This document shows, in pieces, positions 33,480-40,876 of a DNA stretch of 64,000 nt. The stretch covers positions 1,408,001 to 1,472,000 of the forward strand of contig CAVYQE010000001.1 of NCBI GenBank assembly GCA_963770565.1, given 5' to 3'. The stretch is from an uncultured Actinomycetota bacterium (GTDB lineage: Bacteria; Actinomycetota; Actinomycetes; JAFAQI01). The notes under the pieces were generated by a model, which was given only the letters and a program-made list of their open reading frames with translations, made no database searches and had not been told where the DNA came from. A program made the translations under genes and the position numbers. Within the stretch, counting starts at the first letter, position 1; every line of letters begins with the position of its first letter.

Positions 33480-34174
33480 TCGACGCCGTCTTGTTCGACT
33501 GGGGTGGCACGATCACGCCGTTCCACGACATCGACCTGCCCGAGCTGTGGACCGCCGCGGCCGAGCTGCTGGCCCCCGACCGGGTCGATGAGGTCGCGGC
33601 CGCGCTGGCCGCGATCGAGGAGCAGTGCTGGGAGCGCACCGGCGACACGATGGCGAGCTTCACCACCGCGGAGCTGCTGCGGATCGCGACCGTTGAGCTC
33701 GGCCTCGATGTCGAGGACGCCGTGCACGACATGGCGAGGGACGCCTATCGCGGCGGCTGGGCGCCCCACCTAGTGTCCCGGCCCGGCGCGGCCGAGGTGC
33801 TCCGCGGGGTCAAGGAGCGCGGGCTGCGTACCGGTCTGCTCTCGAACACGCACTGGCCGCGGGACTGGCACGAAGATGCGCTCGCCGCGGACGGGTTGCT
33901 GGAGTTTCTCGACGCGCGGGTCTACACCAGCGAGATCCCGCACCTCAAGCCACACCCAGAGGCGTTCGCGGCGGTCATGGACGCGGTCGGCACCACTGCC
34001 GAGCGAGCCGTGTTCGTCGGCGACCGGCTCTACGACGACATCAGCGGAGCCAACGCGCTCGGGATGCGGGCGGTGTGGATCCGCAACGACAAGGTGCCGG
34101 CGTACGTCGTCGAGCCGGATGCGGTGATCGAGGAGCTCGACGAGCTGCTCGACGTCATCGACGCCTGGCGCTAG
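33476..34174 (+). CDS. HAD-family hydrolase
   Basis: [26 protein letters not shown]. Confidence 0.88.
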
Positions 34175-34180
34175 CCGGAA

Positions 34181-34594
34181 TCAGGCCGGCTGGCCGGGCA
34201 GGGCCTGGGTGCCGCCCCAGTGGGTCGCCCGCACCGCCGCCTCGGCGAGCCAGCCGATGCCCAGTGACCGCACCGACGTCGAGGTCGCGCTCGCCGCGAT
34301 CAGGTCCCAGGCCGCGCCGGCGCACCCCTGCTCGAGCTGGGCGGCGAGCCGGCCTGCGCTCGCGGCGTCGGTGACCGGGAACGGCAACCGGTACGCCGGC
34401 CGGGCGACCACCGGGGTGGCACCGAGCGAGCCGACCAACTCGATCAAGCGGTCGCGCGTGACCATGTGGGCCGCCAGGGCGGCGGTCGCGTAGCGCTGAT
34501 CCGCACCGGTGAGCCGGGCCCCCACGACCCCGTAGCCGTAGACGGTCGCGTTCTCGGCGGCCAGCGCGGCCTGGAGCGCCTTGACAACGGTCAC
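34181..34594 (-). CDS. Ferritin-like domain protein (DUF4439 type)
   Basis: ALQAALAAENATVYGYG, H...RD, Y.LPFPV, LE; upstream-of-rimP position. Confidence 0.75.
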   Translation of the reverse strand: MTVVKALQAALAAENATVYGYGVVGARLTGADQRYATAALAAHMVTRDRLIELVGSLGATPVVARPAYRLPFPVTDAASAGRLAAQLEQGCAGAAWDLIAASATSTSVRSLGIGWLAEAAVRATHWGGTQALPGQPA

Positions 34595-35034
34595 TGCAGG
34601 CTGGCCTCGTGCGAGGCCGCGATGCTCGCGAACAGCGCGGCGTTCGTCCCGTTCACCGCGGCGAGCGAGAACCCGCGAAGGGTGGCCACCGAGCCGTGCA
34701 GGGCCCGCCGCAGGTTGGTCACGACCGCGATGTCGGCGACGTCGGGGGCGTTCAGGTCGGCCGACTTGAGCGCCGCGAGATGGGTGGCGTGCACGGCCCG
34801 GGCGACCTGCAGGATGGCCCGGTGGCGGGCCGTGGCGTGCGCGATCTTCGCGTCGTACGACGCGAGGAGCAGTGACTCGAGGTTGCGGGCGGAGATCAGC
34901 GCCGCAGCGTCGGGAGCGACCACCGGGGCGGGTGGGGTGGGCCGACGATGCTTGCCGCAACCGGCCACCGTGACCAGCGCGCCGGCCAGCAGTGCCCGCC
35001 TGGAGATCGCGCGCCCGGAGATTTGCACTGTCAC
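34591..35034 (-). CDS. Putative Tat-exported lipoprotein
   Basis: SRRALL twin-arginine motif, VAGC lipobox, ASIAASHEA terminus; stop overlaps the ferritin-like start. Confidence 0.65.
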
Positions 35035-35076
35035 GAGTGTGCCATCACGGCTGTCCTGGTCGGTACGGTGTGCCGC

Positions 35077-35535
35077 ATGGCCGTGCTCTCGCAATCCCGA
35101 CTGCGCGAGCTGCTCGAGCCGGCCGTGACCGGGGCGGGCTACGACCTCGAGTCCGTCACGGTGACGAGTGCCGGCCGCCGCAGCGTGGTTCGGGTCGTGG
35201 TCGATCGCGACGGCGGGGTCGATCTCGACGCGGTCGCCGAGGTCTCGCGGGCGGTGTCCGCGGTGCTCGATGCCGCGGGCGAGCTGGGGGAGTCGCCGTA
35301 CGTCCTCGAAGTCACCTCTCCCGGCGTCGACCGGCCGCTGACCGAACCCCGGCACTGGCGCCGCAACAAGGGCCGGCTGGTCCAGGTCGGCGAGTTGACC
35401 GGAAGGATCCGGGAGGTCACCGATCAGGCGGTGTCCATCGAGGTCGACGGAGTCGAACGAGACATCGAGTTCCGCGACCGCCCGGAGGGCCGAGTCATTG
35501 TCGAGTTCACGCACAGCGAGGAGTGGTCGCCGTGA
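35077..35535 (+). CDS. rimP: Ribosome maturation factor RimP
   Basis: [27 protein letters not shown]. Confidence 0.93.
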
Positions 35536-36515
35536 ACATCGACGTCACCGCGTTGCGCGGGCTGGTCCGGGAGAAGGATGTCTCCTTCGACACCGTGGTG
35601 GAGGCGATCGAGTCGGCGTTGCTGGCCGCCTACCACCGCACCGAGGGCGCGCACGAGCGGGCGCGGGTGCAGCTCGACCGCAAGACCGGCGAGGTCACCG
35701 TCTGGGCCCAGGAGGTCGACGAGGCGGGCGAGGTGACCAGCGAGTCGGTCGACACCCCGAGCGACTTCGGCCGGATCGCGGCTATGACCGCCAAGCAGGT
35801 GATCATGTCGAGGCTTCGCGACGTCGCCCAGGAGACGACGTACGGCGAATACGCCGGCCGCGAGGGCGACCTGGTCAGCGGGCTGGTCCAGCACCACTCC
35901 GGGGTCCGGCCGGACGGCCCGGTCTTCGTCCACCTCGGTGACATCGAGGGCGTGCTCCCGCACGCCGAGCAGGTGCCGGGCGAGCGCTATGTCCACGGCG
36001 ATCGCCTGCGTTGCCTGGTGATCGGGGTGCACAAGGGCCCGCGAGGTGCCCAGGTCACCTTGTCGCGCAGCCACCCGAACCTGGTCCGCAAGCTGTTCGC
36101 GATGGAGGTGCCCGAGATTGCGGACGGCACGGTCGAGATCGCCGCGATCGCCCGGGAGGCCGGCCACCGGACGAAGGTCGCGGTTCGCTCGAACTCGCCC
36201 GACGTCCGGGCGCGCGGCGCGTGCATCGGGCCGATGGGCTCCCGGGTGCGGGCGGTCGTGACCGAGCTGCATGGGGAGAAGATCGACATCATCGACTGGG
36301 ATCCCGACCCGGCCACATTTGTCGGAAATGCACTCTCGCCGGCCCAGGTCACCAGCGTGACCGTGGTCGATCCGGTGGCCAAGGCGGCCCGGGTCGTGGT
36401 CCCCGACTTCCAGCTCTCGCTCGCGATCGGCAAGGAAGGCCAAAACGCCCGCCTGGCGAACCGGCTCACCGGCTGGCGGATCGACATCCACGCGGAGGAG
36501 ACCCCACCGGGCTAG
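35532..36515 (+). CDS. nusA: Transcription factor NusA
   Basis: [45 protein letters not shown]. Confidence 0.97.
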
Positions 36516-36523
36516 ACTTCGGT

Positions 36524-36826
36524 GTGGCCAGCAGCGTCGAGCCGGTCCGCACATGTGTCGGGTGCCGGGTCCGCGCTGCCAAGCCGGACCTGTTGCGCGT
36601 CGTCGCGGTCGCGGGAGCCCTGCTCCCCGATCGGCGAGGGACCTCGAGTGGGCGTGGTGTGCACCTGCACCCCGACCCCGAGTGCCTCGCACTGGCGGAG
36701 CGTCGCCGGGCGTTCCACCGGGCTTTTCGCCTCGACGGGCCGCTGCGGACGGACGACCTGCTTGACTACCTCACGCAGCACCACCAAAAGAACGATCACC
36801 ACGAGCAGAGCGGAACCACCCCATGA
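36524..36826 (+). CDS. ylxR: YlxR/DUF448 RNA-binding protein
   Basis: PVRTCVGCR, LLRVV, GRG..LHP...C...A.RRRAF; TAGACT 5 nt upstream of the GTG. Confidence 0.85.
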   Translation: MASSVEPVRTCVGCRVRAAKPDLLRVVAVAGALLPDRRGTSSGRGVHLHPDPECLALAERRRAFHRAFRLDGPLRTDDLLDYLTQHHQKNDHHEQSGTTP

Positions 36827-36868
36827 GCGCTCGATGAGCCAGCACCGATGAGTACCGCCGTGCACTGA
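36823..36868 (+). other. Chain of three ATGA-overlapped micro-ORFs (MSAR, MSQHR, MSTAVH) upstream of infB
   Basis: ATG AGC GCT CGA TGA (36823-36837); ATG AGC CAG CAC CGA TGA (36834-36851); ATG AGT ACC GCC GTG CAC TGA (36848-36868). Confidence 0.6.
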
Positions 36869-36915
36869 CAACGGCTTGCGGGCAGACCGACCGCGGGCCA
36901 CCGAAGGAGAAGTTT

Positions 36916-39599
<2,684 letters not shown>

Positions 39600-39603
<4 letters not shown>

Positions 39604-40019
39604 GCCAGCTCGATGCCGCCCGGATCCGGAAGATGAGTGTCCGGGTGCGGGAGATCGTGGCCCACGTGGTCGAGCGTCAGATCAAGGACGACCGGCTGGG
39701 CATGGTCACGATCACCGACGTCCGGATGACGCCCGACTTGCACGAGGCGACCGTGTTTTGGACCGTCTGGGGTGACGACACGGCCCGGGCCGAGAGTGCG
39801 GCCGCGCTCGAGCGCGCGACCGGCGTGGTGCGAAGCGCGGTGGGCCGGGCCACCGGGCTCAAGCACACCCCGAGCATCACCTTCATCCTCGACGCGCTGC
39901 CGGACAACGCGGTGGCAATCGAAGCCGCGCTGGCCCGTGCCCGGGACGAGGACGAACGCGTCCACCGGGCCGCCGAGGGGGCACAACCAGCGGGCGAAGC
40001 GGATCCGTATAAGTCGTGA
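39600..40019 (+). CDS. rbfA: Ribosome-binding factor A
   Basis: [24 protein letters not shown]...F..D. Confidence 0.93.
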
Positions 40020-40876
40020 CCGACGGAATCGTCGTCGTCGACAAGCCGTCCGGGTGGACCTCGCACGACGTGGTCGCCCGGCTGCGCCGGCTCGCCGGCA
40101 CCCGCCGGGTGGGCCACGCCGGCACGCTCGACCCGATGGCCACCGGCGTCCTGGTGGTCGGGATCGGCCAGGCGACCAGGCTGCTCGGCCACCTGGCACT
40201 GACCGACAAGGACTACGACGCAACCATTCGCCTCGGTGCTTCGACGACAACCGACGACGCCGAAGGCGAGATAACCGCCGAAGCCGAAGGCGAGGCCCTC
40301 ACTGAGATAACCGATGCTGCCATCGCAGCCGCGATCACCGGCCTGACCGGCGACATCGAGCAGGTCCCGAGCGCGGTCTCCGCGATCAAGGTCGACGGGG
40401 TCCGCGCTTACAAGCGGGCCCGGGCCGGCGAGACCGTCGAGCTGACGGCGCGCCGGGTCCGCATCGCGGCCTTCGACGTTCTCGCGCGGCGCGGGGCTGA
40501 CCTCGACGTGTATGTCTCCTGCTCGACCGGCACCTACATCCGGGCCCTTGCTCGCGACCTCGGCGTGGCGCTGGGGGTCGGCGCGCACCTGACCGCGCTG
40601 CGCCGGACCCGGGTCGGCGGTTTCACGATCGAGACGGCGCGGACCCTCGAACAACTCGAGGCGCGCCTCGACGTAGTGCCGCTCAGTGCGGCGGTCGCGG
40701 CCGCGTTCCCGCGGATCGACGTCACCGAGGAGGAGGCCCGCCGGATCGGCCAGGGCCAGCGGCTCGTGCTCGACCTGCCGGCCTCGCCGGCCGGCGTGTT
40801 CGACCCGGGCGGGCGGGTGGTCGCGCTGGTCGAGAACCGCGACGGCGTTGCCCAGCCGAAGTGCGTGTTCGCATGA
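40016..40876 (+). CDS. truB: tRNA pseudouridine(55) synthase
   Basis: DKPSGWTSHDVV, GHAGTLDPMATG, CSTGTYIR. Confidence 0.96.
   Translation: MTDGIVVVDKPSGWTSHDVVARLRRLAGTRRVGHAGTLDPMATGVLVVGIGQATRLLGHLALTDKDYDATIRLGASTTTDDAEGEITAEAEGEALTEITDAAIAAAITGLTGDIEQVPSAVSAIKVDGVRAYKRARAGETVELTARRVRIAAFDVLARRGADLDVYVSCSTGTYIRALARDLGVALGVGAHLTALRRTRVGGFTIETARTLEQLEARLDVVPLSAAVAAAFPRIDVTEEEARRIGQGQRLVLDLPASPAGVFDPGGRVVALVENRDGVAQPKCVFA

Follow-up and report, generated by a model that had tools for sequence, protein, structure and literature searches.

A conserved chain of overlapping micro-ORFs before infB in the Actinomycetes, and a candidate RNA switch at the start of the IF2 gene

Several described systems use short upstream open reading frames (ORFs), or the decoding of a gene's own message, to regulate translation. 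Leaders of the ermC type have a single leader peptide with four RNA segments, and stalling of the ribosome by a drug opens the ribosome-binding site (RBS). In the eukaryotic GCN4 and ATF4 messages, where ribosomes scan, reinitiation after upstream ORFs (uORFs) senses the eIF2-GTP-Met-tRNAi complex. Among translation-factor genes, infC (IF3, with an AUU start) and prfB (RF2, with a +1 frameshift at a UGA) are autoregulated. We know of no comparable autoregulatory device or cis-regulatory element for infB, which encodes translation initiation factor IF2, and IF2 is to our knowledge the initiation factor without known autoregulation. The factor is essential, and little is understood of how bacteria set its level. 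Here we describe the ylxR-infB junction in a window of 64,000 nucleotides (nt; the whole stretch of DNA analysed) from contig CAVYQE010000001.1 of an uncultured Actinomycetota bacterium of the class Actinomycetes. At this junction three micro-ORFs of four, five and six sense codons, each opening on the ATGA that closes its predecessor, are followed by a hairpin and then by the Shine-Dalgarno (SD) sequence and GTG start of infB. We are nearly certain that the element is real and functional. The full reading developed below, a translated relay whose last ribosome opens the hairpin so that the infB ribosome-binding site closes, has in our judgement an even chance of being right.

The junction is laid out as follows, in window coordinates; hairpin A is the local stem-loop, and structure B is the competing pairing of its 3' arm with the beginning of infB.

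36524-36826, plus strand: ylxR coding sequence (rnpM-type, DUF448; Pfam PF04296 YlxR, E 2.4e-18; frame checked by hand)
36807-36816, plus strand: block AGAGCGGAAC, upstream of micro-ORF 1, conserved in the alignment of the window's family
36823-36837, plus strand: micro-ORF 1, MSAR* (ATG AGC GCT CGA TGA), with ATGA overlaps at both ends
36834-36851, plus strand: micro-ORF 2, MSQHR* (ATG AGC CAG CAC CGA TGA), without an SD, with ATGA overlaps at both ends
36848-36868, plus strand: micro-ORF 3, MSTAVH* (ATG AGT ACC GCC GTG CAC TGA), without an SD
36873-36881, plus strand: 5' arm of hairpin A, GGCTTGCGG, the proposed anti-sequestering strand
36891-36899, plus strand: 3' arm of hairpin A, CCGCGGGCC, of which bases 36892-36899 can alternatively pair with 36924-36931 (structure B)
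36903-36909, plus strand: infB SD, GAAGGAG, with a predicted anti-SD duplex of -9.6 kcal/mol
36916-39603, plus strand: infB (IF2), GTG start at 36916 (Pfam IF2_N, GTP_EFTU, IF-2)
36924-36931, plus strand: infB +9 to +16, GGCCCGCG, codons 3 to 6, the structure B partner of the 3' arm

The ylxR frame runs from a GTG at 36524 to a TGA at 36824-36826 that shares bases with the ATG at 36823. A preliminary description of this DNA had reported this overlap, the three micro-ORFs behind it and the passage of the chain through all three frames, and inspection of the sequence confirmed each of these. It had also remarked that every ORF begins ATG-AGY, which is indeed seen, with the qualification that the A is forced by the overlap and only the G-Y is a free preference. 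The TGA of micro-ORF 3 (36866-36868) lies 7 nt, first base to first base, ahead of hairpin A, in which 36873-36881 pairs with 36891-36899 through nine pairs (two of them G-U) at a predicted -17.4 kcal/mol.

The ylxR region was taken from 30 relatives, ranging from the same genus to the same class, and YlxR was found in 28 of the 31 genomes including the window's own; at 27 loci both YlxR and the IF2 N-terminus were found (tblastn-based table). At 26 of these 27 loci three or more coupled micro-ORFs form a chain, after which come a stop, a hairpin, an SD and infB with a GTG start; the sole exception (L017) carries a degenerate version. The nucleotides of the chain are better kept than YlxR, whose identity falls to 42-60%. 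A family search also lists YlxR in control genomes, Corynebacterium glutamicum among them. According to the same table, ylxR ends on the ATG of unit 1 at 13 loci, on the stop of unit 2 at four, on the stop of unit 1 at one, and 27-160 nt upstream of unit 1 at the remaining nine; a criterion of an open frame of at least 50 codons was dropped as unreliable in GC-rich DNA. The position of the chain follows infB and is independent of where ylxR stops, and the earlier picture of a chain tied to the ylxR stop is not supported. With three TGAs in three frames, ylxR is caught in whichever frame it arrives.

A covariance model (R1), built from 26 of the 27-locus sequences, has one match in the window's own genome and one match each in 126 of 151 genomes drawn evenly from the class (84 of 96 genera). 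In a phylum-wide sample of 151 genomes it has seven matches, all within the window's class, and no chain precedes infB in four of four genomes of other classes in which infB was located by protein. An ATGA chain with variable inner codons had been anticipated across Actinomycetota; it is conserved in the class Actinomycetes and absent from those four genomes. Three of the genomes are unpublished (G026, whose locus L025 is among the 27 loci and in the R1 seed, and G190 and G200, which are among the 126 matches), and no conclusion depends on them. A pattern scan of the genomes of 185,579 species gave at least 119 stretches. Among the matches listed, 78 of 80 titles are Actinomycetota, and these include Nonomuraea, Actinomadura, Streptosporangium and Microbispora together with metagenome-assembled genomes of Sporichthyaceae, Frankiaceae, Kineosporiaceae, Nanopelagicales and Mycobacteriales. 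One of the two other titles among those listed carries IF2 and the chain and is probably mis-binned; the second has no IF2 match and looks like chance. A variant missed by R1 occurs in a group of 1.5-Mb low-GC genomes, with a three-unit chain and a hairpin.

The reading frames were analysed in a pooled set of 112 unique sequences, mostly R1 matches and hence biased towards carriers. At least three units are present in 100 of them, two in eight and one in four; infB starts with GTG in all 112, and the last stop lies 20-62 nt (median 43) before that start. Among 219 junctions, 216 are ATGA, two are TGATG and one is TAATG. That all 219 overlap is true by construction of the chain search, and the independent support comes from the final stop: between the last ATGA and the hairpin, 85 of 87 sequences have an in-frame stop where letter-preserving shuffles predict 17.1, and stops in the other two frames occur in just 7 and 4 of the 87. 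Across the 112 sequences the final stops are TAA in 42, TAG in 37 and TGA in 29. With no frame assumed, 205 of 228 raw distances from one ATGA to the next are 2 mod 3; most of the 23 exceptions are internal in-frame ATGs or ATGAs that lie upstream of the chain, and the two uncoupled Mycobacterium-like loci are also among them. Spacings from ATG to ATG take the values 8, 11, 14, 17, 20 and so on up to 62.

Two families depart from the common form in instructive detail. In L237 (family f91) the chain runs via TAATG, TAATG and ATGA (MDQ*, MSGSK*, MRPVH*), the GATGAG repeats being lost, and the hairpin, SD and GTG follow. In f61 (L187, L188, L194 and L198, with L203 similar and slightly different) ACG stands in place of the ATG of unit 1, and a GTG 12 nt upstream, in frame and preceded by a GAAGGAG SD, gives a first unit of seven codons. 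The inner codons vary freely (MSAR, MSTR, MTAR, MSPR; MSQHR, MSTQR, MSTRR), so the peptides themselves are unlikely to matter, and no conserved arrest (stalling) motif was seen across the varying units. Since start/stop coupling and frame are kept and the motif is dispensable, selection seems to act on translated, coupled ORFs and not on a protein-binding repeat or a DNA box; from this comparative pattern we consider it very probable that the micro-ORFs are under selection as translated units.

Predicted anti-SD duplexes have medians of about -9.5 kcal/mol at unit 1, -3.0 at unit 2, -1.9 at unit 3 and -9.6 at infB. In most lineages (e.g. L020, L023, L195 and L222) a block GGAAGCAGGTCGAGA, SD-like with one internal mismatch, is conserved 4-8 nt ahead of the first ATG; its reading frame changes from genome to genome, and it is therefore not coding. 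In the window the block AGAGCGGAAC stands in this place and is weakly SD-like, and the unit 1 duplex reaches only -6.0 kcal/mol here and in those close relatives whose ylxR stop is overlapped by unit 1. The statement that none of the ORFs has its own SD is thus right for units 2 and 3 and needs correcting for unit 1, whose SD-like stretch is weak here and at full strength in most other lineages. With an SD at unit 1 in most lineages and none at units 2 and 3, ribosomes would enter unit 1 through its SD or from ylxR, and would reach the later units only by restarting. Because the start/stop overlaps behave like selected coding features and units 2 and 3 have no SD, serial termination-reinitiation is the natural reading.

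The hairpin had been placed beside the infB SD; its position, 36873-36899, stands, and it is not merely adjacent, being half of a candidate two-state switch with infB codons 3 to 6. Bases 36892-36899 of its 3' arm are complementary both to the 5' arm and to infB +9 to +16. Covariation was scored for both pairings on an alignment of 105 sequences built without reference to structure. In hairpin A 88.9% of cells are paired, with 47 changed on both sides, and in structure B 90.7% are paired, with 39 changed on both sides; none of 500 shuffles was as high for either. Controls with the pairing slid along the alignment stayed at or below 58% for A and B together, structure B slid by one to three columns being at most 55% paired. 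Two mutually exclusive pairings share the 3' arm, each with covariation. In detail, A in the arm faces T in infB in 43 of 43 cases, C in infB (an Ala or Thr codon in place of Val) faces G in 23 of 25 cases spread over six families, and a swap from C-G to G-C that uses the synonymous third base of an Arg codon occurs in five families. Tested against infB +1 to +33, 81 of 111 arms bind more strongly than 95% of dinucleotide shuffles do, with an identical partner start in 65 of those.

The predicted stabilities of the two states are nearly equal: ensemble energies differ by a median of -0.5 kcal/mol, with B favoured in 38 of 87 sequences and A in 49. For the window itself the balance is about 4 kcal/mol towards B (-61.4 vs -57.3), and the minimum free energy (MFE) folds of 36848-36960 and 36823-36975 both give structure B, whose stem covers +9 to +16 and encloses the SD and the GTG. 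In the B-state MFE of the window, GAAG in the SD and UG in the GUG are likewise paired. Folded as a single sequence, 36790-36930 did no better than its shuffles (z 0.18); the stretch leaves out the last base of the B partner, and so could not have shown B. The last stop precedes the 5' arm by 4 nt in 31 sequences and by 7 nt in 44 (by 2-10 nt in 92 of 94), which is within reach of a terminating ribosome by established footprint sizes. RNAalifold, run on 26 and on 112 sequences, returned hairpin A only and no consensus structure over the units.

For initiation the 30S subunit needs a single strand from about -15 to +15 of the start site, and IF2, which brings in fMet-tRNA, is held to favour starts that do not depend on an SD. 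We propose that a ribosome would enter micro-ORF 1 through its own SD in most lineages, or by restarting at the ylxR stop in the window, terminate at the UGA that overlaps the next AUG, restart there on micro-ORF 2 without an SD, and do the same on micro-ORF 3. Its final termination would fall 4 or 7 nt before hairpin A, where the ribosome on the last stop would cover or unwind the 5' arm and free the 3' arm, and structure B could then form. B would close the SD and GTG into a stem-loop within the 30S binding site, so that throughput of the relay would lower infB initiation; when the relay fails, hairpin A would keep the 3' arm and leave the strong infB SD open. The candidate switch between the hairpin and infB codons 3 to 6 suggests that the relay represses infB rather than merely setting its level. 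Control of infB translation through the A/B switch is, in our view, somewhat better than an even proposition. Two serial SD-less restarts would make throughput a steep function of restart capacity, plausibly of IF2-GTP-fMet-tRNA, and high IF2 would then shut infB and low IF2 open it, a negative feedback on IF2 synthesis. This last step, feedback from IF2 or from initiation capacity, we put forward only tentatively. IF1 and IF2 are reported to promote the drop-off of short peptidyl-tRNAs (Karimi et al. 1998, a reference in PMC10192219); drop-off is a possible second route for an effect of IF2 on the relay, with a sign opposite to that of the reinitiation route.

Several observations weigh against the relay-and-switch proposal or limit it. 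The case for translation of the units comes from evolution only. The last sense codon is CGA in 181 of 219 cases and the second codon AGC or AGT in 254 of 327, which exceeds what the overlap demands and is unexplained. In the B-state MFE folds the SD itself is paired in 42 of 87 sequences and the start in 47, or about half. The duplex test against infB was failed by 30 of the 111 sequences, among them five close relatives with AAGGAG or AAGCAA at the partner site, and one B pair (100:152) is unpaired in 31 of 105. In a cruder first test of B, 17 of 106 sequences had the arm site as the best of 81 infB windows and 31 had it among the best three, arm extraction being faulty for several rows. The B partner is coding sequence, so the protein accounts for part of its constancy, and because related genomes are non-independent the shuffle controls overstate significance. 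With the stop in its A site, and the hairpin beginning 7 nt on, a ribosome may open no more than the first few pairs of the stem. A contig of 406 nt from a soil metatranscriptome library matches 36613-37017 without a difference, bridging ylxR, the relay and the infB start; as the contig carries no transcript ends and DNA carry-over is possible, it is weak evidence of co-transcription. Two families missed by R1, finally, lack hairpin A or structure B. In f68 (L183, L234 and L236) three coupled units occur with no hairpin, the last stop lying 9-10 nt before the infB SD and 20-25 nt from the infB start. In f14 (L185 and L186) MSTP* is followed, 10 nt away and uncoupled, by a six-codon ORF and by a different hairpin whose arm has no complementarity to infB, so that there is no B; this arrangement looks like a decayed or rebuilt relay. 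The IF2 of f14 begins VAGKARVHE, an N-terminus that we take to be Mycobacterium-type. As an observation on f68, a ribosome terminating at its last stop would sit on the SD itself.

How far the pattern could arise by chance was assessed in the window and in the whole genome. ATGA-N4-16-ATGA-N4-16-ATGA matches once in the window, with 0.17 matches expected; at least one match also occurs in 14 of 100 shuffles. ATGAG occurs 3760 times on the two strands of the 4.43-Mb genome, and three copies fall within 30 bp at this junction alone, a triple for which a rough Poisson estimate gives about 0.2 per genome. The genome has six chains in which three or more coupled ORFs are each no longer than 12 codons, and that of the infB leader is the only one joined by ATGA throughout and the most compact. 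The surprise voiced earlier at three ATGAG units in 30 bp is justified as far as the uniqueness in this genome goes, and it amounts to a modest rarity in one sequence; the evidence that the pattern is not chance rests on the comparison between genomes and hardly on the single sequence. Chance or a neutral by-product, such as three-frame stops after ylxR, fits the mild improbability within one window, and is already refuted by the class-wide, single-copy nucleotide conservation, always before infB, next to a YlxR at 42-60% identity; we give it practically no weight. Direct repeats at the DNA level, as a response-regulator box with 11-bp spacing or an infB promoter element, would agree with the 11- and 14-bp distances between the units in the window. 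Such repeats are very improbable, given that spacings of 8, 11, 14, 17, 20 and up to 62 bp all occur, that the in-frame stop and the SD evidence find no explanation at the DNA level, and that no sigma-70-like promoter was found in the scan of 34000-37500. The same evidence on frames bears on the idea that three (C/A)GAUGAGC units are bound as RNA by a protein, e.g. YlxR/RnpM, with the frames incidental. That idea would account for the motif being kept beyond the need of the overlap, and two papers describe YlxR as an RNA-binding protein in B. subtilis and cyanobacteria (PMC10853771, PMC11622646). It fails to account for lineages in which the motif is lost and the coupling retained (L237 with TAATG, and the TGATG and TAATG variants), for the final stop being in frame in 85 of 87, or for a lost ATG being replaced by an SD and in-frame GTG; with no consensus structure across the units either, we regard protein binding as improbable.

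Two further explanations accept translation of the chain and differ on its purpose. Translation of the micro-ORFs might shield the ylxR-infB spacer from Rho or RNase, with the hairpin a processing or stabilising 5' structure of the infB transcript. Many lineages do have 100-250 nt of apparently untranslated RNA between ylxR and the chain, and a preprint on M. tuberculosis (10.1101/2022.06.01.494293) describes translated uORFs as shaping premature termination there. Such a role gives no reason for three coupled units, for the fixed offset of 4 or 7 nt from stop to hairpin or for structure B, and the hairpin has no T-run, the terminator scan being empty at that place; this too is rather improbable. 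The other explanation is positive coupling, in which the chain passes ribosomes arriving from ylxR, or loaded at its own SD, on to infB: the terminating ribosome would melt the hairpin, slide about 45 nt and restart at the SD-GTG, so that infB is co-translated with the genes before it, and nothing would be sensed. Bacterial post-termination ribosomes can reportedly restart within tens of nucleotides, which the distance from the last stop to the infB start would allow, and overlaps of the ATGA/GTGA kind are the usual device of this operon (infB/rbfA, rbfA/truB); the hairpin-less f68 family retains the chain close to the start. Delivery is unneeded, however, where infB has so strong an SD of its own, and one overlap or a short spacer would give better coupling than three micro-ORFs and a stable hairpin. 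Positive coupling leaves the covarying match of the 3' arm with infB +9 to +16 unexplained, and the chain is not coupled to ylxR at 9 of the 27 loci. We think it unlikely, and prefer the reading in which the relay closes the infB site through structure B.

The forms of the relay vary in other ways. In L197, L032-L034, L196 and L238 the number and spacing of units vary by whole 11-nt units, and one genome of this group carries three tandem copies of MTTR* ahead of its last unit; genomes of 7-9 Mb have spacings of 11/11 rather than 11/14. In G023 (L027/L036) a variant relay of METR*, MSSQR* and MSA* is followed by a longer ORF and a hairpin, then by an SD and a Gly/Pro-rich frame that is not the IF2 N-terminal domain; the infB of this genome may be without that domain. 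Two structural ideas about the units were tried and rejected. A K-turn or box C/D-like reading of GAUGAG with CUGA has no consensus fold, and CUGA is UAG or UAA in most lineages; a pairing of the conserved upstream block with the junction of units 1 and 2 is unsupported by the consensus fold. Metagenome contigs of related strains differ from the window's leader (36823-36915) only in the hairpin loop (36882-36889) and in the spacer between SD and start (36912-36914), the arms, SD and micro-ORFs being unchanged; one of these contigs also differs within infB.

The surrounding operon has the order nusA (ending at 36515), ylxR, infB, rbfA and truB, the last two at the following positions.

39600-40019, plus strand: rbfA
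40016-40876, plus strand: truB

These genuine genes downstream are joined by GTGA (infB/rbfA at 39600-39603, rbfA/truB at 40016-40019): the real genes of the operon overlap via GTG and the micro-ORFs, almost without exception, via ATG. The ylxR GTG lies 8 nt past the nusA stop, inside the operon and with no known transcript start, and the suggestion in the preliminary description that ylxR is leaderless falls away. The longest open frame of nusA, 34992-36515, has 507 aa and its NusA N-terminal domain begins at residue 186, so that the true start lies about 180 codons further downstream or the protein has a long N-terminal extension. An ORF at 34466-35128, in the place expected for rimP, has no Pfam match. 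Residues ~50-290 of IF2 (37060-37780) form a low-complexity linker rich in Pro, Gly and Ala, including a run of ten Gly, between the N-terminal domain and the G domain. Rfam cmscan of 34500-37500 on both strands gave no matches at E up to 10, and a terminator scan of the plus strand over 34000-37500 found none, the hairpin at 36873-36899 being followed by ACCGAAGGAG with no T-run.

If the proposal is right, a whole bacterial class, which includes the antibiotic producers Nonomuraea, Actinomadura and Streptosporangium, would control IF2 synthesis by ordinary parts, overlapping start and stop signals and a hairpin, in a new use, with reinitiation in several steps serving as input to an RNA switch. 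The device would act as a homeostat for IF2 and offer a compact, transplantable sensor of translation-initiation capacity, and it would mean that chains of 4-6-codon ORFs, discarded by gene callers, can be strongly selected. The element is short, single-copy and easily mutated, which makes the hypothesis directly testable. A full-text literature search, whose scope left most subscription journals and the supplementary Ribo-seq tables of mycobacteria and Streptomyces outside, found no paper on an infB leader, a uORF cascade or IF2 autoregulation in Actinobacteria, and as far as we have found no earlier description exists of serial restarts that feed an RNA switch ahead of a translation-factor gene.

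By mechanism the infB leader would group with leader-peptide attenuators and with termination-reinitiation coupling, and by logic it resembles GCN4. With leader-peptide attenuation (ermC, cat, cmlA) it shares a short upstream ORF and a ribosome whose position would pick between competing pairings, one of which would hide the RBS. It differs from the ermC type in having three coupled micro-ORFs, three RNA segments and no evident stalling peptide, and in that the ribosome would close the RBS rather than open it. With termination-reinitiation at AUGA or UGAUG it shares the overlap signals, the downstream start without an SD and the company of genes in the same operon that use GTGA; known cases couple two real genes once, whereas here units of 3-7 codons with no conserved peptide are repeated two to four times. 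The micro-ORFs fall in the 2-6-codon range of frequent drop-off known from minigenes and lambda bar, which are toxic or artificial constructs and not conserved regulators. Like infC and prfB, the infB leader is a cis signal in the factor's own message, with decoding that would depend on the factor and with negative feedback, here as a proposal; those genes use a single non-canonical start or an in-gene frameshift site. With GCN4 and ATF4 it has in common serial tiny uORFs and an output that would track the efficiency of reinitiation, and so of the factor that delivers initiator tRNA. The likeness is functional only, with no homology: the eukaryotic systems rely on scanning and have no RNA switch, and the gene they regulate is a transcription factor and not the delivery factor itself. 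We offer it as a possibility, short of a probable one, that the infB leader is a bacterial counterpart of the GCN4 principle, in which an SD-less relay would gauge IF2-GTP-fMet-tRNA and a three-strand switch would close the infB site at high capacity.

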